This document shows positions 5,303 through 30,884 of a stretch of DNA of 31,142 nucleotides, in pieces. Below the pieces are notes generated by a model. The model did no database searches, had not been told where the DNA came from, and saw only the letters and a list, made by a program, of their open reading frames with translations. Position 1 is the first letter of the stretch. The number at the start of each line of letters is the position of its first letter. A program made the translations under genes and the position numbers. The stretch comes from Planctomycetota bacterium (GTDB lineage Bacteria; Planctomycetota; UBA11346), in NCBI GenBank assembly GCA_038213805.1, contig JBBQSO010000065.1, positions 1-31,142 on the forward strand, given 5' to 3'.

Positions 5303-5498
5303 GGCTGATGGCTGATGGCTGATGGCTGATGGCTGATGGCTGATGGCTGATGGCTGATGGCTGGGAGAGCTGGCGCACTGATCTCTGTCCAGGTGCTTCA
5401 GTCGGCGATTCTTTCACAGATCCTGACACCCATCGTAATCGTATTCCTGGGAGAGACGTGAGTCTCCCGCCATCAGCCATCAGCCATCAGCCATCAGC
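5303..5498. repeat. Inverted heptamer arrays (GGCTGAT)x8.7 ... (GCCATCA)x4
   Basis: 5303-5363 and 5469-5498 are reverse-complementary. Pairing extends inward (GGGAGA/TCTCCC). Loop is about 95 nt. Confidence 0.95.
5419..5443 (+). promoter_or_regulatory. Putative ECF promoter GATCC-N16-CGTA for the oxidoreductase-DUF1365-desaturase unit
   Basis: GATCC 5419-5423 and CGTA 5440-5443; motif shared with 3280 and 8762. Confidence 0.7.
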
Positions 5499-5515
5499 AG
5501 AGGCAATCGCTTCCC

Positions 5516-6775
5516 ATGAAAATCGCCATCGTCGGTACCGGCGTCTCCGGCCTGGTCGCCGCCCACCTCCTGCATCCGCAGCACGAGCTGCAGATCTTCG
5601 AGGCCAACGACTACGCCGGTGGGCATACCAACACCGTGCCGATCGAGGCCGCTGGGCGCACCTGGCCGATCGACACCGGTTTCATCGTCTTCAACGACTG
5701 GACCTACCCGAATTTCATCCGCCTGCTCGCGCGCCTCAAGGTGGCTTCGCAGCCGACCACGATGAGTTTCAGCGTGCGCTGCGAGCGCACCGGGCTGGAA
5801 TACAACGGGCGCAACCTGAACACCCTGTTCGCGCAGCGCCGCAACCTCTTCCGCCCGTCATTCCATGGCATGATCCGCGACATCCTGCGCTTCAACCGCG
5901 AGGCGCCGGAGCTGCTGGCCGCAGGCGCCGCGGAACCCGGCCCGACGCTCGGCGCCTACCTCGCCGAACATCGCTACGGCCGCGCCTTCATCGATCACTA
6001 TATCGTGCCGATGGGCGCGGCGATCTGGTCGGCGCCGGTCGAACAGCTGCGCGCCTTCCCGGCGCGCTTCTTCGTGCGCTTTTTCGCCAACCACGGGATG
6101 CTCAGCGTCGACCACCGCCCGCAGTGGCGGGTGGTCAGCGGCGGCTCGCAAAGCTACGTGCGCGCCCTGACCGCGCCCATGCGCGAGCGCATCCGCCTGG
6201 GCGATCCGGTGCGCGCCATCACCCGCGAGCTCAGCGGCGTGCGCCTGCGTACCGCGTCCGGAGCCGAGCACACCGCCGACCACGTGATCATCGCCGTGCA
6301 CGGCGACGAAGCCCTGCCCCTGCTCACGGACCCCAGCGAGGCGGAGCGCGCGGTGCTCGGGGCTTTCAGCTATCAGGACAACGAAGCCGTCCTGCATACC
6401 GACGCCAGTGTCATGCCGCGCGCGCGGCGCGCCTGGGCGGCGTGGAATTACCACCTGCCGGCGGTACCGCACGACGACCGCCGCATCGCCCTCACCTACC
6501 ACATGAACGCCCTGCAGGGCCTAGCGGCGGACCGCGAATTCCTCGTCACCCTCAATCCCGGCCTGCCGATCGATCCGGCGCGGGTGCTGCGCCGCATCCG
6601 ATACGCGCATCCGCTCTTCACCCAGGGGGCCGTCGCCGCGCAGCGACGCCTGGGCGAAGTCAGCGGCCTGCGTTCAACCTCGTATTGCGGCGCCTACTGG
6701 GGTTACGGCTTCCACGAGGACGGCGTGGTAAGCGCACTGGCCGCCTGCCGTCCTTTCTGTGTAGGCTTGGAGTGA
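5516..6775 (+). CDS. FAD-dependent oxidoreductase (UfaD/RSP1091, Rv0449c-like)
   Basis: KIAIVGTGVSGL, GGHTNT, DTGFIVFNDWTYPNF, AAWNY, YCGAYWGYGFHEDG; adjacent to DUF1365. Confidence 0.88.
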   Translation: MKIAIVGTGVSGLVAAHLLHPQHELQIFEANDYAGGHTNTVPIEAAGRTWPIDTGFIVFNDWTYPNFIRLLARLKVASQPTTMSFSVRCERTGLEYNGRNLNTLFAQRRNLFRPSFHGMIRDILRFNREAPELLAAGAAEPGPTLGAYLAEHRYGRAFIDHYIVPMGAAIWSAPVEQLRAFPARFFVRFFANHGMLSVDHRPQWRVVSGGSQSYVRALTAPMRERIRLGDPVRAITRELSGVRLRTASGAEHTADHVIIAVHGDEALPLLTDPSEAERAVLGAFSYQDNEAVLHTDASVMPRARRAWAAWNYHLPAVPHDDRRIALTYHMNALQGLAADREFLVTLNPGLPIDPARVLRRIRYAHPLFTQGAVAAQRRLGEVSGLRSTSYCGAYWGYGFHEDGVVSALAACRPFCVGLE

Positions 6776-6777
6776 CC

Positions 6778-7575
6778 ATGCGCCCAGCCGCCGACCAGTC
6801 CCGGTTGCGCAGCTGCATTTACGAAGGCCGGGTCACGCATCGCCGCACGGCGCCCATACCGCATGCCTTCACCTACTCCTTGTTTCTGATGTACCTGGAC
6901 CTTGACGAGCTTCCGCGGGTCTTCGCCGGCAGCCGCCTGTGGCGCGTCGAACGCCCGGCGGTGGCCTCCTTCCGGCGCAGCGACTTTCTCGGCGATCCTG
7001 CCGTGCCGCTCGCCCAGGCGGTGCGCGACCTGGTTGCTGCGCGCAGCGACGCCCGGCCGGACGGCCCGGTGCGCCTGCTGACGTCGCTACGCTACTTCGG
7101 TCACTCCTTCAATCCGGTGTCGTTCTACTACTGCTTTGCGAAGGATGGCGAGACCCTGGTCGCGATTGTCGCAGAGATAACCAATACGCCGTGGCGGGAG
7201 CGCCACGCCTACGTCTTGCACGTGCGCGATCCCAAACAGAGTCTGCACCGCTTCGCGATGCCAAAAGTCTTCCACATCTCGCCATTCATGGGCATGGTCC
7301 AGGACTACGGCTGGCGTTTCACTGCCCCTGCCGAACGTCTGGCAGTCCACATGGAGAACCGTGAGCAGGGCGACAGGATGTTCACCGCCGCGCTGACCAT
7401 GCAGCGGCGCCGGATCACCCCCTCGGTGCTTGCCCGCATGCTCGTCCGCTACCCTGCCCTGACGCTCAAAGTGCTGGCCGGCATATATTTGCAGGCTGCG
7501 GCCTTGTGGTGGAAGGGTCTGCCGTTCTTTTCCAATCCGCGTTCGCTTCCACCGCTCGCCAAGGCACCCGCATGA
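6778..7575 (+). CDS. DUF1365 family protein (UfaO/RSP1090, Rv0448c-like)
   Basis: IYEGRVTHRR..HAFTY, FNPVSFYYCF, AEITNTPWRERHAY, KVFHISPFM, IYLQAAALWWKG. True start is ATG 6778 (or GTG 6772) within ORF 5350..7575. Confidence 0.9.
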   Translation: MRPAADQSRLRSCIYEGRVTHRRTAPIPHAFTYSLFLMYLDLDELPRVFAGSRLWRVERPAVASFRRSDFLGDPAVPLAQAVRDLVAARSDARPDGPVRLLTSLRYFGHSFNPVSFYYCFAKDGETLVAIVAEITNTPWRERHAYVLHVRDPKQSLHRFAMPKVFHISPFMGMVQDYGWRFTAPAERLAVHMENREQGDRMFTAALTMQRRRITPSVLARMLVRYPALTLKVLAGIYLQAAALWWKGLPFFSNPRSLPPLAKAPA

Positions 7576-8666
7576 CCCCGATGCTGCCCGACGACTCCTC
7601 CCCCACGTCCGGAAGCGATTCCGCGGTGGCCTTCGCCGAGGCCCCAGCCGTCTCCCCCGACCTCTTGCGCGCCGCCGAGGCGGCCCGTCCGCGGCCCGGT
7701 TTCCTGCGCCACCTGTGGCTGACCGTGCGGCGCTGGGTCGATGTGCACACGGGTGAGGACGAGCTCGCCAAGACCCACGAGGCCAAGGTCGACTGGCCGC
7801 GCATCATGCCCTTCCTCGGCCTGCACGTCGCCTGCCTGACCGTCTACTGGGTCGGCTTCAGCTGGGTGGCCCTGGGCGTTGCGGTGGCGCTCTACGCCGT
7901 GCGCATGTTCGCCATCACCGCCTTCTACCACCGCTACTTCTCGCACCGCGCCTACAAGACCAGCCGCGTCGCGCAGTTCATCTTCGCCTGCATCGGCAAC
8001 TCCTCGGTGCAGCGTGGACCGCTGTGGTGGGCCGCCCACCACCGCCATCACCACCGTTTCAGCGACCAGGAGCCCGACCGCCACTCGCCGCGCCAGCAGG
8101 GCCTGCTGTGGAGCCACATGGGCTGGTTCAGCTCCGAGAGCAACTTCCCGACCGACTACAAGTCGGTGCAGGACCTGGCGAAGTTCCCCGAGCTGATGTT
8201 CCTCAACCGCTTCGACGTGCTGATGCCCATCTTGCTCGGTACCAGCTGCTTCTTTCTCGGCCGCCTGCTGAATGCCATGTGGCCCGAGCTGCATACGTCA
8301 GGCCTGCAGATGCTGGTGTGGGGCTTCTGCATCTCGACCGTGGCCGTGGCGCATGCCACCTTCACCGTCAACTCGCTGACCCACGTCTTCGGCGTGCAGG
8401 ACTACGATTCCAAGGACGACAGCCGCAACAGCATGCTGATCGCCCTGCTGACCTTCGGCGAGGGATGGCACAACAACCACCACCACTACAGCGCCTCGGC
8501 GCGCCAGGGCTTCCGCTGGTGGCAGATCGACATGAGCTATTACGGCCTGTGGGTGATGTCCAAGCTGGGCATCGTGTGGGCGCTCAAGCCGGTTCCGGCC
8601 GAGGTGGTGGCACAAGCCCGACGCCAGGCGCCCAAGCCGTTCGGGAAGCGTCCGCGCAAGCCGTGA
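7572..8666 (+). CDS. Membrane fatty-acid desaturase (delta-9 / OLE1-like)
   Basis: His boxes HRYFSH, HRHHH and GEGWHNNHH; TM segments; ATGA overlap with DUF1365. Confidence 0.92.
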   Translation: MTPMLPDDSSPTSGSDSAVAFAEAPAVSPDLLRAAEAARPRPGFLRHLWLTVRRWVDVHTGEDELAKTHEAKVDWPRIMPFLGLHVACLTVYWVGFSWVALGVAVALYAVRMFAITAFYHRYFSHRAYKTSRVAQFIFACIGNSSVQRGPLWWAAHHRHHHRFSDQEPDRHSPRQQGLLWSHMGWFSSESNFPTDYKSVQDLAKFPELMFLNRFDVLMPILLGTSCFFLGRLLNAMWPELHTSGLQMLVWGFCISTVAVAHATFTVNSLTHVFGVQDYDSKDDSRNSMLIALLTFGEGWHNNHHHYSASARQGFRWWQIDMSYYGLWVMSKLGIVWALKPVPAEVVAQARRQAPKPFGKRPRKP

Positions 8667-8691
8667 TCCGGCCTTTTGGCGCAACTTATGA

Positions 8692-8724
8692 GCCGCTGCA
8701 GGTCATTGACTTGCAGCGGTTTTT
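8692..8724 (+). terminator. Intrinsic terminator after the desaturase
   Basis: Stem CCGCTGCAGGTC / GACTTGCAGCGG (one G-U pair) followed by TTTTT. Confidence 0.75.
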
Positions 8725-8761
8725 CGTTCTGAGGGGGGCCTCCTGTTGCAGCACCCCGCAA

Positions 8762-8786
8762 CATCCGATTCCCCTTGCCTGACGTA
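8762..8786 (+). promoter_or_regulatory. Putative ECF promoter CATCC-N16-CGTA for the methyltransferase unit
   Basis: Lies between the terminator and GAGGAG / ATG 8813; same motif as 3280 and 5419. Confidence 0.7.
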
Positions 8787-8812
8787 TCGCTGACGAGGAG
8801 AAGGGTGTCGCC

Positions 8813-10141
8813 ATGCCGCAAGCCAGCCTGCCCAGCTTTGAATCCGAGACCATGGAGGGCCGACCCCAGGAAGGCGGTGCGCCCGCGGTCCCGGTCGTCC
8901 ACGCCGCGACCTTGATCGAGCGCCTGGCGCGGCGCGCGGTGCTCGCCCGCTTCGCCGGCCTCACCCACGGCCGCATCGAGATCAGCGAAGGCGATCAGCG
9001 CTGGGTGCTCGGGGGCCGCGCCCCAGGGCCGGTGGCGCGCCTCACCATCCTGCATCCGCGCACCTGGGCCGACGTCGCCCTGGCCGGCACCATCGGCTCC
9101 GGCGAGGCGTTCATGGCCGGCGCCTGGACCTGCGACGACCTCACTTCACTGATCCGCATCCTGGTGCTGAACCGCGCGACCCTGGATGGTCTGGAGGGGG
9201 GCTGGGCACGTTTCAGCGCGCCGCTGTTCCGCCTCGCCCATGCCTGGAACCGCAACACCCCGGGCGGCAGCCGGCGCAACATCAGCGCGCACTACGACCT
9301 CGGAAACGAGTTCTTCGCGCTCTTCCTCGATCGCGAGATGATGTATTCCAGCGCGTATTTCCCGAGCGCCGCCGCCACCCTCGAAGAAGCCTCGACGGCC
9401 AAGCTCGAACGCATTTGCGCGCGCCTCGAACTGAAGCCCGGTGACCATCTGCTCGAGATCGGTACCGGCTGGGGCGGCATGGCCATCCACGCCGCGCGCC
9501 ATCACGGCTGCCGCGTCACCACCACCACCATCTCGAAGCGTCAGCACGAACTCGCCACTGCGCGGGTGCACGCCGCGGGCCTCGAGGACCGCGTCACGGT
9601 GCTGCTCAGCGACTATCGCGATCTCACCGGGACCTACGACAAGCTGGTGTCGATCGAGATGATCGAGGCGGTCGGCTGGCAGTTCTACGAAACCTACTTC
9701 CGCACCTGCGCGCGCCTGCTGAAGCCAGCGGGGTTGATGGTCATCCAGGCCATCACCATCGCCGACCAGCAGTACGAGACCGCCAAGCGCTGCGTCGACT
9801 TCATCCAGCGCCACATCTTCCCGGGCAGCTGCATCCCCTCGCTGACTGCGCTGGGCAACGCCATGACCCGCGCCAGCGACCTGCGCGTGGTCGCCAGCGA
9901 GGACCACGCGCCGCACTACGCGCGCACCCTGGCCTGCTGGCGCGAGCGTTTCCTGGCCAAGCGCGGCGAGGCCGCGGCGCTGGGCTGCAGCGAGACCTTC
10001 CTGCGCATGTGGGAGTTCTACCTGTGCTATTGCGAAGGCGGGTTCCACGAGCGCGTCCTTGGCCTGGTCCACCTGACCATCGCCAAGCCGGGTTACCGCC
10101 AGCCGGACCAGCTGGCGCTCGACCCCGCCCGGACGGCCTGA
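8813..10141 (+). CDS. Cyclopropane-fatty-acyl-phospholipid synthase family methyltransferase (UfaM/UfaA1-like)
   Basis: NISAHYDLGNEFF..MMYSSAYF, LLEIGTGWGG, SIEMIEAVG, FIQRHIFPG, HYARTL, RMWEFYLCYCEGGF. Confidence 0.92.
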   Translation: MPQASLPSFESETMEGRPQEGGAPAVPVVHAATLIERLARRAVLARFAGLTHGRIEISEGDQRWVLGGRAPGPVARLTILHPRTWADVALAGTIGSGEAFMAGAWTCDDLTSLIRILVLNRATLDGLEGGWARFSAPLFRLAHAWNRNTPGGSRRNISAHYDLGNEFFALFLDREMMYSSAYFPSAAATLEEASTAKLERICARLELKPGDHLLEIGTGWGGMAIHAARHHGCRVTTTTISKRQHELATARVHAAGLEDRVTVLLSDYRDLTGTYDKLVSIEMIEAVGWQFYETYFRTCARLLKPAGLMVIQAITIADQQYETAKRCVDFIQRHIFPGSCIPSLTALGNAMTRASDLRVVASEDHAPHYARTLACWRERFLAKRGEAAALGCSETFLRMWEFYLCYCEGGFHERVLGLVHLTIAKPGYRQPDQLALDPARTA

Positions 10142-10142
10142 G

Positions 10143-10739
10143 ATGGCGACGATCTTCGCCGCGTCCGGCCCCGCGCCGTTGGGAGCGCCGCGCTGGCGGC
10201 ACTTCCCACTCGTTGAGGCGGCGCTCTTCCAGGCGGGCTGGTTCGCCTGCGTGCTGGGCGCGGCACACCAGCTGTTCTGGCTGGGCCCGGTGGTGGCCGG
10301 CGCCGTGCTGCTGATCCATCTCGCCTGCATGCACCAGCCGCGCAGCGAGCTGCGCGTCGCCGGCTTCGCCTTGATGACCGGGGTGCTCGCCGACTCGCTG
10401 CTCGGGCAGGTCGGCCTGCTGCGCTGCGCGCCGTTCGCGGATGCGGTGTCGCCGCCGTGGATGGCGGTGCTGTGGCCGCTGTTCGGCATCTCGCTGCGCA
10501 CCTACTGCCGCTGGCTGCAGCGCCGCCTGGTGCTCGCCGCGCTCCTCGGCGCAGTGGCAGGGCCACTGTCCTACTGGGCCGGGGTGCGGATCGGGGTGCT
10601 GCAGCTGCCCGCGGGTACGCTGCCCGGCTTGGCGGCGATCTCCGTCGAATGGCTGATCGCGACGCCGCTGCTGGCCTGGTTCGCCGGCTGGGCGGGGCGT
10701 GCGGATCCGGCAGCGACGGCGGAGGTGTCGCGTGCCTGA
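10143..10739 (+). CDS. DUF2878 family membrane protein
   Basis: FQAGWFACVLG, PPWMAVLWPLF, GAVAGPLSYWAG; several TM helices; usual member of this cluster. Confidence 0.8.
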   Translation: MATIFAASGPAPLGAPRWRHFPLVEAALFQAGWFACVLGAAHQLFWLGPVVAGAVLLIHLACMHQPRSELRVAGFALMTGVLADSLLGQVGLLRCAPFADAVSPPWMAVLWPLFGISLRTYCRWLQRRLVLAALLGAVAGPLSYWAGVRIGVLQLPAGTLPGLAAISVEWLIATPLLAWFAGWAGRADPAATAEVSRA

Positions 10740-11541
10740 GGCGCTCATCCACCTGCTGATCATCGCCGGCGCGGCGTCGGCGCTGATGGTGGCGCTATGG
10801 CTCGTGCAGCGCGCGCGCCGCGACGCCAGCCTGGTCGACGCCGGCTGGGCCTTCGGCATCGGCGCGGGCGCGGTGCTGCTGCTCGCGCTCGGTGATGGCG
10901 ACCCCACCCGGCGCATGGTGACTGGCGCGCTCATTGCGGTGTGGTCGCTGCGCCTGACCGCTCATCTGGTGCGCGATCGGGTCATCGGAAAACCCGAGGA
11001 CGGCCGCTATCAGGAACTGCGCCAGCGCTGGGGTGCGCAGGCGAACACCTGGTTCTTTGTCTTCTTCCAGTTCCAGGCGCTGCTGGTGGTGGTGTTCACC
11101 ACGCCCTTCCTGGTGATCGCCACGGATACCGCCGCCTTCGGCGGCATCGGCGACTGGGCCGGCATCGCCATCTGGGTGGTGGCGCTGGGCGCCGAAGCGC
11201 TCGCTGACCGCGAGCTCGCCGCCTGGCGCCGCGATCCGGCCAATCGCGGCCGCACCTGCCGCGCGGGCCTGTGGCGGTATTCGCGGCACCCCAACTATTT
11301 TGGTGAGTGGCTGCACTGGTTCGCCTACGTCGCCCTGGCCGCCGCGTCGCCGTGGATGGGCGTGACCTGGCTGGTGCCGGCGCTGCTGCTCTTCCTGCTT
11401 CTGAAAGTCACCGGCATCCCGCCCACCGAGGCGCGCGCCCTGGCCAGCCGCGGCGACGACTACCGCGCGTACCAGCGTACCACCAGCGCCTTCATCCCCT
11501 GGTTCCCGAAACGGGACCCCACGCCTACGGAGTCGCCATGA
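10732..11541 (+). CDS. DUF1295 family membrane protein (steroid 5-alpha-reductase-like, Rv0446c-like)
   Basis: SLVDAGW, EDGRY, GLWRYSRHPNYFGEW, YRAYQRTTSAFIPWFP. GTG start with GGAGG at 10721. Confidence 0.9.
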   Translation: MPEALIHLLIIAGAASALMVALWLVQRARRDASLVDAGWAFGIGAGAVLLLALGDGDPTRRMVTGALIAVWSLRLTAHLVRDRVIGKPEDGRYQELRQRWGAQANTWFFVFFQFQALLVVVFTTPFLVIATDTAAFGGIGDWAGIAIWVVALGAEALADRELAAWRRDPANRGRTCRAGLWRYSRHPNYFGEWLHWFAYVALAAASPWMGVTWLVPALLLFLLLKVTGIPPTEARALASRGDDYRAYQRTTSAFIPWFPKRDPTPTESP

Positions 11542-12569
11542 GCCTTGGACTCGATCTCGCCGAACGCGGCCTGCTGCCCGACGCCGTCACCCGCCTCGGG
11601 ATCCGCCGTCTGCTGCGCGACCGCCTGCGCAGCGAATCGCACGGTGGCCCGGAAGGCGACCAGCAGCATCTCATGGGCCTGGTCGAAGAGCTCAAGCGCA
11701 GCCCGCTTGCCGTGCACACCGACGCGGCCAACGCGCAGCACTACGAGGTGCCCGCAGAGTTCTATCTCCAGGTGTTGGGGAAGCGGCTGAAGTACAGCTC
11801 GTGCTATTATCCCGAAGGCGTCACCGGCCTCGACCAGGCCGAAGAGGTCATGCTCGGCATGACCTGCGAGCGCGCTCAGCTCGCCGATGGCATGGACATC
11901 CTTGAGATCGGCTGTGGCTGGGGATCGCTGACGCTGTGGATGGCCGAGAAATACCCGCACGCGCGCATCACCGCGGTCTCGAACTCGGCCTCGCAGCGCG
12001 AATTCATCACGGCGCGGGCACGCGAGCGCGGCTTCGCCAACGTCACGGTGATCACCGCGAACATGATCGGCTTCGACACCGAGCTGCGCTTCGACCGCGT
12101 GGTCTCGGTGGAGTGCTTTGAGCACCTGCGCAACTACCACGAGCTGTTCCGGCGCATCGCGTCGTGGCTGCGGCCCGACGGCAAGCTTTTCACCCACGTC
12201 TTCAGCCACAGCCGCTTCGCCTACCCCTTCGAGACCAGCGGCACTGACGACTGGATGGGCAAGCACTTCTTCACTGGCGGCATCATGCCATCCGACCAGC
12301 TCTTCCTGTATTTCCAGGAGCACCTCGCCATCGCCGCGCACTGGCGCGTCGACGGCACCCACTACGCGCGCACCGCGCGCGGCTGGCTCGACAACCTCGA
12401 CCGCCGCCGTGACACCGTCATGGGCTTCTTCCGCCGCGACGCCGACCACAAGCTCGCCACCGTGCGCTGCGAGCGCTGGCGCATGTTCTTCATGGCCTGC
12501 GAGGAATTGTTCGGCTACGCCAAGGGACAGGAGTGGATCGTGAGCCATTACCTGTTTACGCGGCGGTAG
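11538..12569 (+). CDS. Second SAM-dependent methyltransferase, CFA synthase / coclaurine N-methyltransferase-like subfamily
   Basis: ANAQHYEVP, KYSSCYY, ILEIGCGWGSL, SVECFEHLRNY, WMGKHFFTGGIMPS, WRMFFMACEELFGY. ATGA overlap. Confidence 0.88.
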   Translation: MSLGLDLAERGLLPDAVTRLGIRRLLRDRLRSESHGGPEGDQQHLMGLVEELKRSPLAVHTDAANAQHYEVPAEFYLQVLGKRLKYSSCYYPEGVTGLDQAEEVMLGMTCERAQLADGMDILEIGCGWGSLTLWMAEKYPHARITAVSNSASQREFITARARERGFANVTVITANMIGFDTELRFDRVVSVECFEHLRNYHELFRRIASWLRPDGKLFTHVFSHSRFAYPFETSGTDDWMGKHFFTGGIMPSDQLFLYFQEHLAIAAHWRVDGTHYARTARGWLDNLDRRRDTVMGFFRRDADHKLATVRCERWRMFFMACEELFGYAKGQEWIVSHYLFTRR

Positions 12570-12572
12570 GCG

Positions 12573-12593
12573 AGGCGCGAGGCGTGAGGCGTA
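12573..12593 (+). repeat. Short heptamer array AGGCG(C/T)(G/A) x3 directly after the stop codon
   Basis: AGGCGCG AGGCGTG AGGCGTA; same unit as in 28644-28678. Confidence 0.6.
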
Positions 12594-12658
12594 TAGCATA
12601 AGATAGGCCGTCGGGCCGAGAGGCTAATGGGCGCACGCGGGCCCCGCGTCTAGCTGCC

Positions 12659-13138
12659 GATGAGACCGCGGAGCGGACGGAAGAAACCAGCCCAGGGCGC
12701 GAGCCCTGCTCATTACCCACAAGTCGCAGCACTCGGGCACTGACACTCTTATCCGCAAGGTCCTGTCCGCAGCCCGCGGAGCGGGCGACACATCGTAGCC
12801 CAGGGCGTGAGCCCTGGGAACCTCGGTTAGGGAGGAAGATCGGAGCCCGCGGAGCGGGCGGCACAGGTCCTGCCACATCGAAATGCGATGAATGCCGGGC
12901 GAGTCGTGATGATCGACGGACATCCCCAGATCGGGTCCCAATGGTCGTGCATTACCGCTGAGCCTGCTGTGTCGCCCACTCCGTGGGCTGGCCCGCAGAC
13001 ACTCCGCGCGATCCAGGGCTGGGGCCCTGGGCTACGATGTGTCGCCCGCTCCGCGGGCTCTGAGTGGCTGCGATTCGACTGACTTGTGGGTAATGGGTAG
13101 GGCTCACAGCCTGGGCTAATTTGCTCCGCAGGCTCATC
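12659..13138. repeat. Nested REP/REPIN-like palindromic element (about 480 bp, three pairs of inverted arms)
   Basis: 12771-12806 is a perfect 36-bp reverse complement of 13024-13059. CATTACCCACAAGTC (12711-12725) pairs with 13081-13095. 12844-12866 pairs with 12967-12989. Units are GCCCGC-GGA-GCGGGC and CCCAGGGC-GTGA-GCCCTGGG hairpins. Confidence 0.88.
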
Positions 13139-13188
13139 ATCGTCATTTTCAATGGCTTAAACCGACTCCTCGGAAGAAGTCGGGAATT

Positions 13189-13229
13189 AAGAAAGCACAT
13201 GCTTGCATTCTAAAAAGAAAGCACATGCT
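13189..13229 (+). promoter_or_regulatory. Duplicated putative TetR operator AAGAAAGCACATGCT
   Basis: Identical 15-mers at 13189 and 13215, each with an AGCA-CA-TGCT dyad, in an AT-rich patch upstream of tetR. Confidence 0.65.
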
Positions 13230-13267
13230 CCCAATCATGCGGGCCTCGCCCCCGCAGCGGGAGCGTC

Positions 13268-13807
13268 ATGGGTCGTCGTCCATTCGTCCGAGATCAGATC
13301 CTCGAAGCCGCCTTCCACCTGATGGCGGTCGAGGGCTACGAGGCGGTCAGCACCCGGCAGATCGCCGAGCGCGCAGGCGTCGGCGCTGCATCCATGTTCA
13401 AGCACTTCCCGACCAAGGAGGACCTCGGTCGCGAGCTTTACCGTGTCGCGCTCGCACCGCTGCAGCGCCAGTTCGCCGATCTCGCAGCCACGATGCCCGA
13501 ACCGCGCGCCGCCCTGCGCGCCGCTCTGCGCCTGCTTTATAGCGCCTACGATGAACGTCCGCGCGCCCTCGCCCTGCTGGTCTTCCCCCCGCACGAGATC
13601 ACCCCAGCCGAGGTCGATATAGCAGAGCCGGCAGCGGTGCGCGCCGTGCTGCAGCGCCTGCTCGGTGCCGATGACGACCTCGCCGCCATCATTTGGGGCG
13701 CTCTCACCGGGCCGCTCCAGGACCGCTTCCTGCGCCGCCGCGCCGGCGCCATGACCCCGCACGCCGATGAGCACGCCAAGCGCATCGTCCGCCTGCTTCC
13801 CACCTGA
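13268..13807 (+). CDS. TetR/AcrR family transcriptional regulator
   Basis: HTH RDQILEAAFHLMAVEGYEAVSTRQIAERAGVGAASMFKHFPTKEDL; GGAG upstream. Confidence 0.92.
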   Translation: MGRRPFVRDQILEAAFHLMAVEGYEAVSTRQIAERAGVGAASMFKHFPTKEDLGRELYRVALAPLQRQFADLAATMPEPRAALRAALRLLYSAYDERPRALALLVFPPHEITPAEVDIAEPAAVRAVLQRLLGADDDLAAIIWGALTGPLQDRFLRRRAGAMTPHADEHAKRIVRLLPT

Positions 13808-13820
13808 ACGGAGAACCGCC

Positions 13821-15623: not shown

Positions 15624-15635
15624 GGGGATTGGGGA

Positions 15636-15845
15636 GATGGCTGATGGCTGATGGCTGATGGCTGACGGCCAACGGACAGCGAGATTTCTCTCGCTGTCCG
15701 TTGTCGTTTGTCGCTATCAGCTATCAGCTATCAGCTATCAGCTATCAGCTATCAGCTATCAGCTATCAGCTATCAGCTATCAGCTATCAGCTATCAGCTA
15801 TCAGCCATCAGCCATCAGCCATCAGCCATCAGCTATCAGCTATCA
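15636..15845. repeat. Inverted heptamer arrays (GATGGCT)x4+ ... (GCTATCA)13(GCCATCA)4(GCTATCA)2
   Basis: Left arm 15636-15677, decaying into GACGGCC and AACGGAC. Right arm is 19 units, 15713-15845. Confidence 0.95.
15670..15710 (+). terminator. Perfect 15-bp hairpin inside the heptamer arms, terminator-like
   Basis: CAACGGACAGCGAGA-TTTC-TCTCGCTGTCCGTTG followed by TCGTTTG. Confidence 0.6.
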
Positions 15846-15907
15846 GCCCTCACCAGCCCCATGCCCACACCAGTCGCCAACGCGCCCCGCCGCGCTAGCC
15901 TCGCGGC

Positions 15908-17233: not shown

Positions 17234-17391
17234 GCTGATGGCTGATGGCGCGTGGACGTGATCGTTGGCGGACGCCGAGCGATGGCTGTCCCCTCGAAAC
17301 GACGACACCGGCGCGCAGCGCCGGTGTCGTCAGCCATCAGCCATCAGCCATCAGCCATCAGCCATCAGCCATCAGCCATCAGCCATCAGCC
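17234..17391. repeat. Inverted heptamer arrays (GCTGATG)x2 ... (TCAGCCA)x8+
   Basis: 17234-17249 and 17330-17391; the last unit supplies the TGA stop of the minus-strand gene. Confidence 0.92.
17301..17331. terminator. Perfect 14-bp hairpin between convergent genes
   Basis: GACGACACCGGCGC-GCA-GCGCCGGTGTCGTC; no clear U-tract. Confidence 0.5.
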
Positions 17392-20496: not shown

Positions 20497-20662
20497 AGGT
20501 GCGGCACGACCATAAACAAGGTGCGTCGCGGTGGTGCGCAGGCACTGGTGGGTTATGCGTTGGGTCCAGGGCCCGGAATTTCCGTCGCGGGCGGACGTGT
20601 CCAACGTCGGACGTGCACGATGTGCCCCTTGCGGGCTCTGCAGCTGTCCAAGAATGCCGGCC

Positions 20663-21064
20663 ATGCCCGGCCCGGTCGACATCGAGGAACTCGCGCGCCA
20701 GGACGGCCGCTTCGCGGTCGATGCCTTCGCCTTCGTCGGCGAGGGGCTGCGCCACGCCGCCAAGAGGTCGGGCAAGGACCAGGCCACGGGCAGCGAGCGC
20801 CACCTGACCGCAGGTGAACTGGTGGAGGGCGTGCTCGACCTTGCGGCCGAGCGCTACGGCCTGCTCGCGGATCTGGTGCTGCGCTCCTGGGGCCTGACCG
20901 GCAGCGGCGACATCGGCAGCATCACCTTCACCCTGATCAGCCACGGCGTGTTCTCCAAGCAGCCCAGCGACCGCCTCGAAGATTTCCTCGCCGGCCCCGA
21001 CTTCGCCAGCGACCTGGTCGCGCGCTGCCGGACGCGGCTGCTGGCTGGCGCAGGGCGCGCATGA
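20663..21064 (+). CDS. Minf_1886 family (Verrucomicrobia/Planctomycetes-restricted) protein
   Basis: DGRFAVDAFAFVGEGL, RHLTAGEL, YGLLADLVLRSWG, DIGSITFTLI, DRLEDF. Start is ATG 20663 or 20654. Confidence 0.8.
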   Translation: MPGPVDIEELARQDGRFAVDAFAFVGEGLRHAAKRSGKDQATGSERHLTAGELVEGVLDLAAERYGLLADLVLRSWGLTGSGDIGSITFTLISHGVFSKQPSDRLEDFLAGPDFASDLVARCRTRLLAGAGRA

Positions 21065-21072
21065 TCGCGCCC

Positions 21073-21251
21073 GTCCGGAAGTCCATCAGGAGGGTCCGGG
21101 AGTCCGTCAGCAGGGTCCGGAAGTCCGGAAGTCCGGAAGTCCGGAAGTCTCGTGGTCCCGGGACGCGGTGCGCGTTCTCGGGCCCGGGCACACGGAATAC
21201 ACCCCAGGAGCAGAGGACTTCCGGACTTCCGGACTTCTGGACTTCCGGACT
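21073..21251. repeat. Inverted octamer arrays (GTCCGGAA)x4 ... (GGACTTCC)x4.6
   Basis: 21115-21149 (plus spaced copies at 21073 and 21094) and 21215-21251; the right arm abuts GTG 21252. Confidence 0.92.
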
Positions 21252-23060
21252 GTGAAAGATCTTCTCGACCACCCCTGGGTGCGCGTCCTGCTCCTCGCCA
21301 CCACCGTGGCGATGTGCAGCTGGGCGCTGCAGGAGACCTCCGCGCTCACCCTGCCGGTGGTGACCGCGCTCGGCGCCGTGCTGCTACCGGTGGCGATCGG
21401 CTTCACCATCGCCTACGTGTTGACCCCGGTCGTCGATGCGCTCACCCGGCGCGGGCTGCCGCGGCCGATCGCGGCCGGGGTGCTGTTCTTCCTGTTCTGC
21501 GTGTCGGCGGTGCTGGGCGTCTCGCTGGTCGTGCCGACGGTGCTCCGCCAGTCGGCCAACCTCACCACCCGCCTTTTCCAGGGTGAGTCGTTCACTGACC
21601 TCAACCACAACGGGGTGTGGGATCCGGGCGAGCCCTATGTCGATGCCAATGGCAACGGCCGCTACGACGGGCGTGGCATGCTCGACACCCTGGCGACCCG
21701 CGTCGAGGACCTGCAGGAGCGCCTGCGCCGCCTGGCCCGGCTCGACCTCGACGCGCCGGCGCTGGCCTTCCTCGACCTCTACCTCGACGAGACCGTCGCT
21801 GAACGCACCCTGATCGACGGGGCGCTCGCCGTCGCGCGCGATGGGCGCGGGCCCGAGCAGTGGCCCGCCGGCCTGCGCCGCGAACCGCCGGCCGACGCGC
21901 CGCCGGCCTGGAATCCGGCGTGGCCCGGCGCGCAGCGCAGCGACGTCGACGACGCCTATGGCCACCTGCTGCCCGAGGTGCGCGAGCGCTGGCTGCGCAA
22001 CCTCGCCGCGGCGGGCGCGGCGCTCGCCGCCAAGCAGGACCTGCTGCTCGCCGCCCTGCGCGCCGCTCGCGACCAGGGCACCCCGGACGAGCCGCGCCTC
22101 GCCGCCGCGGTCGAGCGCCTGCGCGCCTATTGGCAGCGGCCCGTCGGGCCCGAGTCGTTCAAGGTCGCCAAGGGCTTCGCCGCGCGCCTCGGCGAGGCCG
22201 TCGAGAAGGACGGCCAGCCGGCTGCCCGCCAGCTGCTCGACGGGCTGCGTGGCGGCGAGGGCGGCATCGGCACACAGTGGCTCGGCCCGCTGGTCAAGTC
22301 GCTGGAGGACGCCGTGCACAGCGAGGCAGAGACCTTGCCGGCCCGCCTCGGCGGCTGGATGCGGGGCGGCCTCGGCAATATCGATCAGCTGCTCGCCTTC
22401 ACCCTCGACGTGCTGCTCGTGCCGATCTACGCGTTCTTCATGATCCTGGCCATGCCGGCGATCCGTCGCGGGGTGAAGGAGCACATCCCGCTCAACCGCC
22501 GCGACCAGGTGCTGCGCATCGCCCACGACATCGAGCGCGTGGTCGCGGCCTTCTTCCGCGGCCGCATCGTGGTGTGCCTGATCTGCGCGGGCCTGACCTA
22601 CATCGGCTTCGTCACCATCGGCATCTTCGGCACTGGCGTGCCCTACGCCGCGCTGTTCGGACTGGCGATCGGGCTCGCCACCGCGGTGCCACTTGCCGGT
22701 ATCCTGTTCCTGGTCCCGGCGGTGGTCCTGACCATGATCGAGGGCGGCGGTCCGATCACCGCGGGCGCGGTGATCGGCGTTTACCTGGCCGTGCAGGCGC
22801 TCGAAACCGTGGTCCTGACGCCGACCATCATGGGCCGCGAGGTCGAGCTGCACCCGGTGACCCTGATCGTCGCGCTGCTGCTGTGCGGCAAGCTCATCGG
22901 CGTGCTCGGCGTGATCATGGCGGTGCCGATCGCCGCGACCTGCCGCATCCTGGCGCGCGAATACCTGTGGCCGCGCCTGCGCGTGTGGGCCGAGCGCCAT
23001 CCGCCGCGGCCATACCCGCTGCCCGAGGCCGGGTCCGGGCCGCCCCCGGCCGGGCCGTGA
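21252..23060 (+). CDS. AI-2E family transporter with a large soluble insertion
   Basis: LLPVAIGFTIAYVLTPVVD at the N-terminus; FFRGRIVVC, QALETVVLTPTIMG..LHPV..LLCGKLIGVLGVIMAVP at the C-terminus; 602 aa. GTG start inferred because the upstream frame is repeat-derived. Confidence 0.87.
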   Translation: MKDLLDHPWVRVLLLATTVAMCSWALQETSALTLPVVTALGAVLLPVAIGFTIAYVLTPVVDALTRRGLPRPIAAGVLFFLFCVSAVLGVSLVVPTVLRQSANLTTRLFQGESFTDLNHNGVWDPGEPYVDANGNGRYDGRGMLDTLATRVEDLQERLRRLARLDLDAPALAFLDLYLDETVAERTLIDGALAVARDGRGPEQWPAGLRREPPADAPPAWNPAWPGAQRSDVDDAYGHLLPEVRERWLRNLAAAGAALAAKQDLLLAALRAARDQGTPDEPRLAAAVERLRAYWQRPVGPESFKVAKGFAARLGEAVEKDGQPAARQLLDGLRGGEGGIGTQWLGPLVKSLEDAVHSEAETLPARLGGWMRGGLGNIDQLLAFTLDVLLVPIYAFFMILAMPAIRRGVKEHIPLNRRDQVLRIAHDIERVVAAFFRGRIVVCLICAGLTYIGFVTIGIFGTGVPYAALFGLAIGLATAVPLAGILFLVPAVVLTMIEGGGPITAGAVIGVYLAVQALETVVLTPTIMGREVELHPVTLIVALLLCGKLIGVLGVIMAVPIAATCRILAREYLWPRLRVWAERHPPRPYPLPEAGSGPPPAGP

Positions 23061-24097
23061 CCCGTTCCGCTCGGCGCATCCTTGACGCCAACGGCAACCG
23101 CGCCGCCGAGGGCCTGCGCGTGCTCGAGGACGTCGCGCGCTTCCTGCTCGACGATGCCGCGCTGGGCGAACGCGCCAAGCTGCTGCGCCACGACGTGCGC
23201 GGCCTGATCCCCGCCGAGGCGGTTGGCGACCGCGACACTGCCGGCGACGTCGGTACCGCCATCACGGCGCCGGACGAGCAGGCCCGCGCGCGGCCGGTCG
23301 ACCTGGTGCGCGCCAATGCCGCGCGCGTCGCCGAGGCACTGCGCGCCGGCGAGGAGGCGGCCAAGCTGCTCGGCCTGCCACGCGCCACCGCCGGGCTCGA
23401 GCAGGCGCGCTACCACGCCTACCAGCTCGAGAGCGGCCTGCTCTCGCGCCTGCCTGCCTGGCTGCTGCACCGCGTGCGCCTGTACGCCCTGGTCGACACC
23501 ACCCTGACCGCCGACCCGGTCGGCGTCGCCGGTGCGGTGGCGCGCGGCGGCGCGGGCGCGGTGCAGCTGCGCGCCAAGGGTCTGGGTGTGCGTGCCTACC
23601 GCGAGCTCGCCGCACGCGTCCAGGATGCGGTGCGCGGCGCCGGCGCGCTGTTCGTGGTCAACGACCATGTCGCGGTGGCGCGCGTGCTGGACGCCGACGC
23701 GGTGCACGTCGGCCAAGACGATCTGGCGCTGGCCGATGTGCGCGCGGTGCTCGGCGCGCGCGGTGCGGTCGGGGTCTCGGCGCACACCGCCGCCCAGGCC
23801 GAGCAGGCGCTGGCCGCCGGCGCCGACTACCTCGGCCTGGGTCCGATGCACGCCACCGCCACCAAGCCGCACGAGCCGGAGCGCGGGCCACAGCTGCTTG
23901 ATGCGGTGCGCGCGCTGCTCGCCGCCACGCGCCGCCCGAGTTACGCCATAGGCGGTCTCGACGCCGCCCGCATCACCGCGCTGCGCGCGCGCTTGCCGCA
24001 CGGCGTAGCGGTGGCCGGCGCCCTGTGCCGTGCCGCCGATCCCGAACGCGCGGCGGCGGAACTGCTGTTGCTTCTCCAGCCCGACGAGCTGGCGTGA
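23057..24097 (+). CDS. thiE: Thiamine-phosphate synthase with N-terminal ThiD2-type helical domain
   Basis: RILDANGNRAAEGLRVLED N-domain; VQLRAK, VVND, VHVGQDD, GVSAH, ADYLGLGP..TATK, AIGG. GTGA overlap with the upstream gene. Confidence 0.9.
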   Translation: MTRSARRILDANGNRAAEGLRVLEDVARFLLDDAALGERAKLLRHDVRGLIPAEAVGDRDTAGDVGTAITAPDEQARARPVDLVRANAARVAEALRAGEEAAKLLGLPRATAGLEQARYHAYQLESGLLSRLPAWLLHRVRLYALVDTTLTADPVGVAGAVARGGAGAVQLRAKGLGVRAYRELAARVQDAVRGAGALFVVNDHVAVARVLDADAVHVGQDDLALADVRAVLGARGAVGVSAHTAAQAEQALAAGADYLGLGPMHATATKPHEPERGPQLLDAVRALLAATRRPSYAIGGLDAARITALRARLPHGVAVAGALCRAADPERAAAELLLLLQPDELA

Positions 24098-24360
24098 CCG
24101 CCGCCCATCAGCCCGGTCCCTGGCCGCGCTTCGCGCTCGTCCAGCTCGCTCAGCTGCCCAGCCTCGGCCTGGCCTGCTTCGGCCAGGGCCCGTGGGCGCT
24201 GTGGACCGCCGCGTTGGTCGCCTCGCTGGTATGCTGTGCGGGGACCGACTCCCTGCCTCCCGCCGCGGGGCGCGCACTGCAGCGCTGCGTGAATGGCGTG
24301 CTGCTTGTGGAGGCGGTGCTGTGGTTGGCGATGGCGCTGGTGCTGGGGACGGCGGGGTAG
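24094..24360 (+). CDS. Small hypothetical membrane protein (88 aa)
   Basis: GTGA overlap with the thiE stop; two to three hydrophobic segments; GC3-rich codons. Confidence 0.6.
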   Translation: MTAAHQPGPWPRFALVQLAQLPSLGLACFGQGPWALWTAALVASLVCCAGTDSLPPAAGRALQRCVNGVLLVEAVLWLAMALVLGTAG

Positions 24361-24367
24361 GGGGCGC

Positions 24368-24605
24368 GGTTACGAGTTACGAGACGCGAGGGCAGCAAGC
24401 TCCGCGTCAGCACCCCTGTGGATGAGCCTGCAGAGCGGGCGGAAGAAAATAACCCAGGGCGTGAGCTATTTTCTTCCGCCCGCTCCGCGGGCTCATCGGC
24501 ACTCACCCGGCGTTCTCGGCCAAGGCACTTGTCTCACCCGTCCAACCTGATTTCCTGTGCCTCGCACTTCGCACCTCGCACCTCGCACCTCGCACCTCGC
24601 ACCTC
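24368..24605. repeat. Heptamer arrays (GGTTACG AGTTACG AGACGCG) ... (CTCGCAC)x6 enclosing a REP-like hairpin
   Basis: 24368-24390 and 24561-24605 share a CGAG/CTCG core in inverted orientation. Confidence 0.8.
24421..24497. repeat. REP-like hairpin of the same family as 12659-13138
   Basis: GATGAGCCTGCAGAGCGGGCGGAAGAAAATA pairs with TATTTTCTTCCGCCCGCTCCGCGGGCTCATC (2 mismatches); loop contains CCCAGGGCGTGAGC. Confidence 0.85.
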
Positions 24606-24628
24606 CCGCCCTCCCCCCCGGAGCCCCC

Positions 24629-25039
24629 ATGGTCACCTTCACCATCACTTATCAGGGCGATCTCCGCTGTGCGGCCGTGCATGGCCCGAGCAAGACCATG
24701 CTGCTCACCGACGCGCCGCTCGACAACCATGGCCGGGGCGAGAGCTTCTCGCCCACCGACCTCATCGCGACCGGCCTTGCGACCTGCGTGCTCACCACCA
24801 TCGGCATCGTCGCCAAGCGCGACGCCGTGGCTTTCACCGGCGCGACCGCCGAGGTCGCGAAGCACATGACCAGCGACCTGCCGCGGCGCATCGCCCGCCT
24901 GGTCGTGCACATCGCCATGCCCCTCGGCCTGGCCCACGAGGTGCGCGCCAAGCTTGAGCGCGCCGGCCACACCTGTCCGGTCAAGCTCTCGCTGCACCCA
25001 GATTTGGTCGTCGAGCTCGCCTACCGCTACGCTGATTGA
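24629..25039 (+). CDS. OsmC family protein
   Basis: TDAPLDNHGRGESFSPTDL..LATC..and CPVKLSL (two conserved Cys); GGAG upstream of ATG 24629. Confidence 0.9.
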   Translation: MVTFTITYQGDLRCAAVHGPSKTMLLTDAPLDNHGRGESFSPTDLIATGLATCVLTTIGIVAKRDAVAFTGATAEVAKHMTSDLPRRIARLVVHIAMPLGLAHEVRAKLERAGHTCPVKLSLHPDLVVELAYRYAD

Positions 25040-26547: not shown

Positions 26548-26603
26548 GACCCTAGACCCTAGACCCTAGACCCTAGACCCTAGACGCGAGACGCGAGACG
26601 CGA
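26548..26603. repeat. Compound heptamer array (GACCCTA)x5(GACGCGA)x3
   Basis: Continuous 7-nt register across the unit switch at 26583. Confidence 0.92.
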
Positions 26604-26628
26604 GGCTGCTAGACCCTGGGGTGTGGGG

Positions 26629-28542: not shown

Positions 28543-28587
28543 GGGGCTACCCTACGGGTGGTGTCGGGGGTGCAAAGGGGGTGGGGG

Positions 28588-28706
28588 AGGCGCGAGACTC
28601 TAGACTCTAGACCCTAGACCTTAGACCCGAGACCCGAGACCCGAGGCGCGAGGCGCGAGGCGCGAGGCGCGAGGCGCGAGGTGCGAGGTGCGAGGTGCGA
28701 GGTGCG
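28588..28706. repeat. Graded heptamer array of 17 in-register units
   Basis: AGGCGCG, AGACTCT x2, AGACCCT, AGACCTT, AGACCCG x3, AGGCGCG x5, AGGTGCG x4. Confidence 0.93.
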
Positions 28707-30128: not shown

Positions 30129-30203
30129 CAGGTCCCTGGGCTTCTGCTGGGGAGCGCGATGCAGCCGGGGACGGTGCTGGTGATGGTGCGGGCGGTGGCG
30201 CGA

Positions 30204-30312
30204 AGTGCGGAGTGCGGAGTGCGGAGTGCCTGGTGCGTCGACATCAAGTCCGCATCCCTGGGTCTATGGGCTTGATTCAGATACCGCAAATCGAAGCGCA
30301 CTCCGCACTCCG
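30204..30312. repeat. Inverted heptamer arrays (AGTGCGG)x3.7 ... (CCGCACT)x2
   Basis: 30204-30229 and 30297-30312 are reverse-complementary; loop about 67 nt. Confidence 0.85.
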
Positions 30313-30338
30313 TGGCCCCCGGCGCGACCACGCCGCGC

Positions 30339-30806
30339 TCAATCCGCGGTTTCTTCCGTGGGCCGCGGCTTGGGCAGGGGTGGCGGCACCTGGTCCGCGG
30401 GCCCGGGCGTCGCCGGGGTGGGGATGGCGCCGCCATCGGAGTCCGTGGCGCGTGCCTTGCGGATGAGGTCGTCCATGCCCTGGCGGTTCTTCTCGACCTC
30501 GTCGTAGGCGAAGGACAGGATCGGCAACAGCCGGGTCTTGACCGACGGCGCGTAGGAGCGCTGCACGAAGCCGCGCGCCGATTCCAGCGCCTGCGCCGCG
30601 AGGCGCCGCTGCACCGGCGTACCGAGCACGGTGTAGTAGGCCTTCACGGTGTGCAGGTCCGAGGTCATCTCGACGCGCGTCACGGTGATGAAGCCGATGC
30701 GCGGATCCTTCAGTTCATGCTGGATGCAGGTCGCGATCTCGCGGTGCAGCAGCGACTCCAGGCGATCCTTGCGGTTCGGGCCGCGCCCCTTGGCGGTGGT
30801 GTTCAT
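30339..30806 (-). CDS. rbfA: Ribosome-binding factor A
   Basis: RKDRLESLLHREIA..ELKDPRIGFITVTRVEMTSDL..KAY..LESARGFVQ..P.LSFAYD; Pro-rich tail. Start ATG 30806. Confidence 0.93.
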   Translation of the reverse strand: MNTTAKGRGPNRKDRLESLLHREIATCIQHELKDPRIGFITVTRVEMTSDLHTVKAYYTVLGTPVQRRLAAQALESARGFVQRSYAPSVKTRLLPILSFAYDEVEKNRQGMDDLIRKARATDSDGGAIPTPATPGPADQVPPPLPKPRPTEETAD

Positions 30807-30828
30807 GGCAGGGAGACCTGGTGGGAAG

Positions 30829-30884
30829 GGAAGCGAGGAAGCGAAGAAGCGAGCGAGCGAGGAAGCGAGGAAACGAGGAAGCGA
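30829..30884. repeat. Octamer array (GGAAGCGA)x7, degenerate
   Basis: Seven in-register units ending 22 nt before the rbfA start on the minus strand. Confidence 0.8.

Follow-up and report, generated by a model that had tools for sequence, protein, structure and literature searches.

The intergenic regions of a 31,142-nt contig from a soil Planctomycetota bacterium (contig C65 of assembly G000, hereafter the window) carry tandem arrays of 7- and 8-nt units, which are probably the arms of hairpin cassettes resembling the intervening sequences (IVSs) of 23S rRNA. A full cassette would consist of a 5′ arm of ∼4.4 tandem 7- or 8-mers (31 to 35 nt), usually with the motif AG(T/G) once per unit, followed by an interior and by a 3′ arm exactly inverse to the first. 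The interior would be either a single-copy loop of 50 to 140 nt or a small gene, encoding a four-helix-bundle protein of the TIGR02436/PF05635 family (S23p, Avd-like; interior of ∼410 nt) or a GxxExxY protein. In a read-through transcript, the arms may fold into a perfect RNA stem of 28 to 35 bp, which RNase III would cut, by analogy with what has been published for rRNA intervening sequences, and the cassette would thereby be cut out of the transcript or would split it. Such cutting would explain why cassettes are tolerated inside operons, at operon junctions and in rRNA, as well as their depletion where only promoters lie. Spread and replacement may proceed via the repeats of the arms, which would anneal to short seeds that match them or to existing arrays, with slippage and conversion keeping the arms uniform.

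A preliminary description of the window, made from its sequence alone, had listed arrays in ten intergenic gaps. Tandem Repeats Finder found arrays at all ten sites, six of them as inverted pairs and four unpaired. All six pairs are of the gene-less loop type, and the genes next to the arrays are ordinary housekeeping and regulatory genes. None of the arrays had been noticed inside a coding sequence; this held for 13 of the 14 window arrays with a period of 7 or 8 and at least 2.5 copies, as judged by crude gene calls, but not for the array at 17330-17391, which overlaps the final 6 nt of an open reading frame (ORF). The excess of periods 7 and 8 extends to the whole assembly (5.5 Mb in 180 contigs, 69% G+C, 90% complete). 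Among arrays that had 3 or more copies and matched by 85% or more, 411 were of period 7 and 177 of period 8, versus 40 of period 6 and 32 of period 9. In 1 Mb simulated by a composition-matched first-order Markov model, no array of period 7 or 8 arose, versus 70 and 43, respectively, in 1 Mb of real sequence. Although intergenic DNA makes up 15% of the genome, it contained 375 of the 411 period-7 arrays and 134 of the 177 period-8 arrays; arrays of period 6 and 9 lay mostly within genes. Genes were called by a simple codon-usage caller (3862 genes, 85% of the genome coding), which is crude, so that distances to start codons are approximate, and most of the seemingly "in-gene" arrays of period 7 or 8 were located at the ends of its ORFs. 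The 588 arrays comprised 87 canonical units, four of which dominated: AGCCATC/GATGGCT (179 arrays), AAGTCCGG (140 arrays), ACCCTAG (42 arrays), and ACTCCGC (39 arrays). That few units are common to hundreds of sites speaks against ordinary simple-sequence repeats, generated by slippage with intrastrand template switching and kept as terminators or stabilizers with neither cassette nor mobility. We regard this explanation as distinctly unlikely, although variant units do form gradients along arrays, in line with slippage.

Inverted pairs, defined as one unit facing its inverse across a gap of at most 400 nt, numbered 105 in the genome. Loop length had a median of 89 nt (interquartile range, 76 to 136 nt, over 125 pairs within 3 kb), and the commonest arm lengths were 31 nt for period 7 and 35 nt for period 8, both equivalent to 4.4 copies. 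Two window cassettes were folded and gave perfect predicted stems of 30 to 36 bp: the cassette at 5303-5498 (∼30-bp stem) reached −118 kcal/mol, with a z score of −7.9 versus shuffled sequences, and that at 21073-21251 reached −106.7 kcal/mol with a z score of −10.9. Small GC-rich hairpins (e.g., GCCGGCCTGGGGGCCGGC) are frequent immediately outside the 5′ arm of G000 cassettes.

Because an inverted pair reads alike on both strands, the order of its arms is an intrinsic feature of the pair. This polarity did not vary within any unit family: the first arm was GGCTGAT in 38 of 38 pairs of its family, GTCCGGAA in 43 of 43, GCGGAGT in 8 of 8, and AGACCCT in 11 of 11. Such invariance is a further point against slippage. 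The G-rich arm precedes its inverse in all six paired gaps of the window, as the preliminary description had noted, and in 93 of the 105 pairs genome-wide; the rule breaks down in the AGACCCT family, in which the C-rich arm comes first. It had also been claimed that loops hold a promoter motif, a perfect hairpin or a REP-like element (REP, repetitive extragenic palindrome). A hairpin (15670-15703) and a long palindrome (∼24412-24500) were indeed present, but a consensus scan detected no sigma-70-like promoter in any loop within 5000-24999, a consensus that may not suit this phylum.

Among the 101 pairs that could be placed (4 more were at contig edges), 66 lay in co-directional, 24 in convergent, and 11 in divergent gaps, versus 876, 236, and 483, respectively, of all 1595 gaps of at least 150 nt. 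Pairs are rare between divergent ORFs. In co-directional gaps, the 5′ arm began a median of 11 nt past the upstream stop codon (interquartile range, 2.5 to 22 nt), and the 3′ arm stopped a median of 51 nt before the called start. Unpaired arrays of the 5′-arm type were found a median of 8 nt past the stop codon (n = 61), and those of the 3′-arm type were closer to the next start (n = 47). Since unpaired arrays thus keep arm-specific places, many can be read as half cassettes, and the four unpaired arrays of the window are read as half cassettes or decayed ones.

Comparison with close relatives revealed that a cassette is either there in full or missing altogether. Two genomes of the same genus, G003 (∼89% identity) and G010 (∼93%), are syntenic with the window. 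Three window gaps that measure 284 nt (15624-15907), 187 nt (21065-21251), and 210 nt (30129-30338) in G000 correspond to 60, 29, and 17 nt, respectively, in G003, and elsewhere a cassette-bearing gap of 138 nt corresponds to 4 nt between stop codon and ATG. The gap at 21065-21251 is also short in G002, G004, G005, and G007 (as judged from block coordinates), which suggests that its cassette was gained in the line of G000 and G010. Cassettes with a gene behaved in the same way. On contig C19 of G000, a four-helix-bundle gene with its arms occupies ∼500 nt; eight same-genus genomes were searched, and the cassette was missing in all six in which both flanks aligned (of the other two, one gave no match and the other carried the two flanks on separate contigs). 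The empty C19 site reads TGATGG exactly where the (TGATGGC) arm starts, and the old site has lost ∼20 nt, among them the start of the downstream gene. This downstream gene, coding for the ATPase of an ATP-binding cassette (ABC) transporter, now starts inside the cassette, so that the right arm (GCCATCA ×4.4) forms its new N terminus (L070, 1826-1900). The loss or gain of arms, loop, and gene together, down to gaps of 4 to 29 nt, is difficult to reconcile with slippage. The filled and empty orthologous sites for which the preliminary description had proposed to look do exist, and its interpretation, that slippage is insufficient and that RNA stems, a protein reading AG at 7-nt spacing, or sites of a small mobile cassette may be involved, is supported in its main line.

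An assembly artifact is a negligible possibility. Contigs begin or end in arrays, and three of them (C1, C21, and C98) begin inside one, which indicates that arrays break the assembly and that copy numbers of long arrays are uncertain and represent lower bounds. Against an artifact, three relatives that were assembled independently have orthologous arrays with loops in common, and the same design was found at 110 loci of other genomes, some of them complete chromosomes.

Gaps did not only gain or lose cassettes, but also exchanged them. When G000 was compared with 422 kb of G003, the 223 orthologous gaps held arrays in G000 only in 15 cases, in G003 only in 9, in both in 10, and in neither in 189. 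Co-occupancy was far above expectation (odds ratio of 14; Fisher's exact test, P = 2e-6), with gap length as a confounder. In the ten doubly occupied gaps, units mostly differed between the two genomes. The gap 3′ of the cardiolipin synthase gene, orthologous to window positions 28587-28706, had three different fillings in three genomes (including L001 and L002), and another gap was occupied by a GGCTGAC cassette in G010 and by an AGACCCT cassette in G000. At three of six empty junctions, a short match to the arm unit was present (TGATGG, TCCGGACTCCCGGA, and cattccgc), an observation that slippage could also accommodate. Copy-number differences between close relatives point in that direction as well, namely 19 copies versus almost none for the array at 15713-15847 and 8.9 versus 4 and 15 for that starting at 17330.

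In cassettes shared by descent, the arms remained perfect while the unit changed on both sides together. At 17234-17391, GAT/ATC in the window is replaced by GAC/GTC in both G010 and G003, and likewise at 5303-5498 and in further cases. The three-unit strings (GGCTGAT)3 and (GGCTGAC)3 were counted 802 and 21 times in G000, 81 and 87 times in G010, and 13 and 30 times in G003, and neither occurred in seven of the other eight same-genus genomes, the eighth (G002) having a single (GGCTGAT)3. As the change from GAC to GAT is a CpG transition, it could have arisen in parallel through mutation bias, and together with homogenization within arrays this could explain the shift without a template in trans, which would be compatible with slippage.

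Loops behaved differently from arms. Between the window and G010, identity was 64.5% for the loop at 5364-5468, 56.1% (ungapped) for that at 21150-21214, and 70.1% for that at 17250-17329. In the same comparison, third codon positions were 86.8% identical and three array-free intergenic stretches 88 to 98% identical; loops diverge much faster than their surroundings in the three cases compared. Unlike the loop, the octamer arms of the cassette at 21073-21251 are near-identical in G000 and G010. An all-against-all comparison and a genome BLAST search of the 105 loops left 96 without another copy in the genome, and the remaining matches were to nested arrays, short GC-rich or REP-like hairpins, and, for one pair of loops, at 78% identity. 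The possibility that loops are copies of one element or remnants of four-helix-bundle genes was rejected on these grounds. Large genes were rejected as cargo, too: pairs more than 500 nt apart had the canonical polarity in 16 cases and the reversed one in 15, as expected for chance neighbors.

Genes of the two families that the preliminary description had named as candidates near such repeats were found in G000 and proved to be recurrent cargo. G000 encodes five TIGR02436 four-helix-bundle genes and one GxxExxY (TIGR04256) gene, and three of the five TIGR02436 genes lie between inverted arrays made of three different units. The loops of the window (43 to 176 nt) are too short for the ∼107-codon ORF of PF05635/TIGR02436. 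In Planctomycetota, we sampled the best TIGR02436 locus from each of 30 genomes (43 to 69% G+C) and searched for arrays within 200 nt of the gene. Arrays flanked it on both sides at 21 loci, on one side at 7, and on neither at 2, and were inverted, with no more than 1 mismatch per unit, at 18. A second sample of 80 loci, collected by alignment of the four-helix-bundle proteins, covered Acidobacteriota, Bacteroidota, Proteobacteria, Verrucomicrobiota, Firmicutes, Chloroflexi, and one archaeal bin, according to record titles. Here, arrays were present on both sides at 48 loci, on one side at 25, and on neither at 7, and were inverted by the same criterion at 38 (37 with heptamers). Units differed between genomes, 61 of 112 arms had 4 to 5 copies, and the interior had a median length of 410 nt. 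TIGR04256 genes gave a similar picture (30 loci: both sides, 14; one side, 13; none, 3; inverted, 10), with arms of 8- to 9-mers in ∼3 copies and a CRCAGAGR type that recurred between genera. Arms of the CRCAGAGR type also face each other, with no gene between them, in the cls-gpsA gap of a relative with 95% identity (L001, 1555-1680). The same design around one conserved gene family across phyla is not what slippage would produce.

Arm units shared a further property across phyla. In 56 clearly inverted four-helix-bundle cassettes, AG was present in the unit of the 5′ arm in 49 cases and in its complement in 11, and the bias was sharper for trinucleotides (AGT, 26 versus 0; AGG, 20 versus 1). 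The 5′ arm units contained 139 G, 102 T, 100 A, and 56 C. One AG(T/G) in each 5′ arm unit is thus a strong cross-phylum signal, and a polarity that holds for 46 units versus 1 in different phyla is a last argument against slippage. All-frame stop codons were tried as the cause of this polarity and rejected, as they were found in 32 left-arm versus 22 right-arm units, a weak difference that is mostly a by-product of AG in TAG. The earlier remark on AG in the units points to a real feature: within G000, AGTCCGGA, AGTGCGG, AGACCCT, AGGCGCG, and AGGTGCG follow the AG rule. The commonest family, GGCTGAT, does not, on its 5′ arm; in 40 of the 105 pairs AG was found on the 3′ arm only.

The AG signal raises the alternative that arrays are phased protein-binding sites, with a candidate pentameric four-helix-bundle protein placing one subunit on each AG(T/G) at 7-nt spacing along single-stranded RNA or DNA, and the hairpin being secondary. 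Avd is a nucleic-acid-binding pentamer, and the four-helix-bundle protein matched a solved structure, 2gsc (E = 1e-21), which was deposited with 5 chains. A 31-nt arm of AGNNNNN units, the commonest length, contains five AG positions, arms with 4 to 5 copies prevail, and the marks recur in 5′ arm units that are otherwise unrelated. PF05635 has been described as resembling the Avd protein of diversity-generating retroelements in the available text of one source (PMC10053308). Across 12 aligned four-helix-bundle proteins, Q30, R33, S37, N41, E44, S64, and E67 are invariant polar residues, in part within a motif SNIAEG; in this family of unknown function, they suggest a site for binding or catalysis. 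Array density per 100 kb was 0 and 0.5 in two same-family genomes without a four-helix-bundle match, 10.7 in G000, and 2.7 and 17.0 in two genomes with 12 to 13 matches, on contigs chosen for carrying the gene. These values, which count for the cassette reading as well, fit a dependence on the protein in a sample that is small and biased. Set against protein binding are the GGCTGAT family, with 38 pairs and no AG on the 5′ arm, the GxxExxY cassettes with their different arms, and the need for five genes to serve ∼590 arrays. We consider this alternative doubtful.

A wider version of the cassette reading, which we put forward only tentatively, would treat heptamer arrays across bacteria as the ends of one selfish hairpin element. 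Five AG(T/G) marks per arm, at 7-nt spacing, might be read by a pentamer of the Avd-like four-helix-bundle protein that the cassette itself encodes, and protein-bound arms might copy the cassette into seeds or arrays. Gene-less cassettes would be served in trans, host RNase III would clear the transcripts, and loops would mutate severalfold faster as single strands.

Several observations weigh against hairpin cassettes of the IVS type. The five four-helix-bundle genes of G000 are few for its ∼590 arrays, and the scarcity of loops with a second copy leaves nearly no donor-recipient pairs. Arm mismatches showed no sense-strand G-U bias (112 G-U versus 120 A-C in 66 cassettes), which lends no support to selection acting only on the sense RNA. 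G000 has an RNase III-like gene (contig C15), with a score of 147.9 bits that falls under the curated cutoff of 166, and no mobility enzyme was identified in the assembly. Junctions, as listed, contained no target-site duplication; this same feature, combined with the unit matches at empty sites and the replacement of cassettes within the same gap, is the reason why spread via the arms appears plausible. Synthesis by a reverse transcriptase, in the manner of telomerase or of diversity-generating retroelements, was rejected, as there were no RVT_1 matches in the 90% complete assembly.

A further alternative is that of REP elements or their derived doublets (REPINs), moved by a Y1 transposase of the REP-associated tyrosine transposase (RAYT) type. 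REPINs are inverted doublets in intergenic DNA, and G000 has five Y1_Tnp matches, four of them above the family cutoff. The strongest Y1_Tnp gene, however, is bracketed by a different palindrome, and no 7- or 8-mer array lies within 2.5 kb of the two strongest, with the exception of an octamer array at a distance of 1.3 kb from the gene on C97. Moreover, arms are tandem repeats rather than single palindromes, and loops are not conserved, which makes this explanation very improbable. The palindrome at the strongest gene is long, occurs on both sides (C48, flanks of 21166-21507), and is typical of RAYT-REP systems.

The arrays and loops of the window are listed in Table 1. In addition, the window contains a dispersed element of ∼400 to 500 bp at 12654-13151, which recurs in the genome in at least 12 further copies of 84 to 96% identity. 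The sole Rfam match of the window, to Acido-Lenti-1 RNA (a small RNA and not an rRNA), lies inside this element on the minus strand (12771-12818).

Table 1. Arrays, arms, and loops of the window (copy numbers and array limits from Tandem Repeats Finder unless a row says otherwise).
Site	Feature	Positions	Strand	Remarks
Pair 5303-5498	5′ arm (GGCTGAT) ×8.7	5303..5363		Tandem Repeats Finder and sequence
Pair 5303-5498	Single-copy loop, 105 nt	5364..5468		64.5% identity to orthologous G010 loop
Pair 5303-5498	3′ arm (GCCATCA) ×4.3	5469..5498		
Unpaired	AG-type array (GCGAGGC) ×3.1	12570..12591	+	Directly 3′ of stop codon at 12569
Pair 15636-15847	5′ arm (GATGGCT) ×4.9	15636..15669		
Pair 15636-15847	Loop with perfect 15-bp hairpin (15670-15703)	15670..15712		Hairpin kept in G010; whole cassette absent in G003
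Pair 15636-15847	3′ arm (GCTATCA/GCCATCA) ×19.3	15713..15847		Right arm almost gone in G010
Pair 17234-17391	5′ arm (GCTGATG) ×2.3	17234..17249		
Pair 17234-17391	Loop, 80 nt, 3′ end a GC-rich hairpin	17250..17329		Hairpin kept in G010 and G003; 69 to 70% identity to their loops
Pair 17234-17391	3′ arm (TCAGCCA) ×8.9	17330..17391		G010 and G003: GAC/GTC unit variant in both arms
Pair 21073-21251	5′ arm: degenerate period-21 stretch, then (GTCCGGAA) ×4.4	21073..21149		
Pair 21073-21251	Loop, 65 nt	21150..21214		56% ungapped identity to G010 loop
Pair 21073-21251	3′ arm (GGACTTCC) ×4.6	21215..21251		G003: 29 nt here, retains TCCGGACTCCCGGA
Pair 24369-24605	Weak degenerate 5′ arm (AGTTACG, AGTTACG, AGACGCG)	24369..24390		Tandem Repeats Finder: 24369-24383, 2.1 copies
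Pair 24369-24605	Loop with long REP-like palindrome (∼24412-24500)	24391..24559		Read from the sequence
Pair 24369-24605	3′ arm (CCTCGCA) ×6.6	24560..24605		Ends 23 nt 5′ of start at 24629; same unit in G003
Unpaired	Composite array (GACCCTA) ×5.4, then (AGACGCG) ×3.3	26548..26616		
Unpaired	Composite array, unit gradient AGACTCT, AGACCCT, AGACCCG, AGGCGCG, AGGTGCG	28587..28706		
Pair 30200-30312	5′ arm (GCGGAGT) ×4.3	30200..30229		
Pair 30200-30312	Loop, 67 nt	30230..30296		
Pair 30200-30312	3′ arm (CGCACTC) ×2.3	30297..30312		G003: 17-nt gap here
Unpaired	Octamer array (GGAAGCGA) ×7.1, 83% match	30829..30885		

Heptamer repeats, such as the short tandemly repeated repetitive (STRR) sequences and those of Xanthomonas and Beggiatoa, have been on record for decades, with no agreement on where they come from or what they do. 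The arrays are now tied to a cassette with a recurrent cargo gene, a presence or absence that can be scored between strains, and, in rRNA, a published fate at the RNA level. In practical terms, cassettes break assemblies, alter gene starts, and split operons in genomes of this kind. In a search that did not extend to most subscription journals or to family curators' notes, we found no paper describing the cross-phylum AG polarity of the arms and none joining intergenic heptamer arrays generally to a four-helix-bundle gene.

The class itself is known, comprising heptamer repeats, the inverted pairs of Xanthomonas, and the heptamers of the Coxiella IVS, and the feature described here is a variation on two known kinds, heptamer repeats and rRNA intervening sequences. 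The STRR heptamers of cyanobacteria belong to this class. For GGGAATC in Xanthomonas and the heptamers of Nostoc (GGGGAYT), Rehm et al. (2015) reported an excess in noncoding DNA, a mode of about four units, rarity between divergent ORFs, and 70 to 75 convergent inverted pairs in Xanthomonas, and explained the repeats by quadruplex formation; the available text does not connect the repeats with a cargo gene or with cassettes being gained and lost (PMC4692102). G000 resembles these repeats, and those of the STRR type, in its period-7 excess, noncoding bias, depletion in divergent gaps, mode of about four units, and convergent pairs, the last three of which would speak for G-quadruplex-forming repeats. 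The main units of G000, however, cannot form quadruplexes: GGCTGAT, GTCCGGAA, and GCGGAGT have no GGG and lack four G-tracts, yet have the same mode of 4 to 5 copies. Octamer families are also present. A quadruplex explanation is therefore extremely unlikely here. The TAACTGA repeats of Beggiatoaceae, cyanobacteria, and Bacteroidetes are, in the available text, likewise intergenic, have 2 to 6 copies, and are absent from orthologous gaps of close relatives, but are almost all direct and located just 5′ of start codons, with one inverted case in 170 sets (PMC4679880), whereas the arrays described here mostly form inverted or half pairs.

MITEs (miniature inverted-repeat transposable elements) and REPINs are also short intergenic elements that lack an enzyme gene and have inverted ends forming hairpins; they differ from our cassettes, which have no target-site duplication, no conserved interior, and arms of tandem repeats. 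A diversity-generating retroelement combines Avd with a reverse transcriptase, a gene type (RVT_1) of which the G000 assembly has none. The closest parallel is the S23p-type IVS of 23S rRNA. In Coxiella burnetii, the IVS has a length of 428 nt and ends in inverted repeats, which pair into a 28-bp stem within which RNase III cuts, and it contains tandem GACAGAT heptamers, the number of which varies between strains, as described in the available part of the source (PMC4990558). Our cassettes differ from it in that they lie between protein genes (all ten window sites do so, rather than in helix 9, 25, or 45 of 23S rRNA), are mostly gene-less, number hundreds per genome, and belong to several unit families. 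The PF05635/TIGR02436 interior of the S23p IVS is absent from the window loops but is found at three other loci of G000. For the IVS, excision by RNase III has been published; for the cassettes, it would follow by analogy. Shared by both, as far as the available text on the IVS goes, are a heptamer stem (arms of 31 to 35 nt here), an interior of ∼430 nt (410 nt in the four-helix-bundle cassettes), the same gene family, and a character foreign to the site of insertion.

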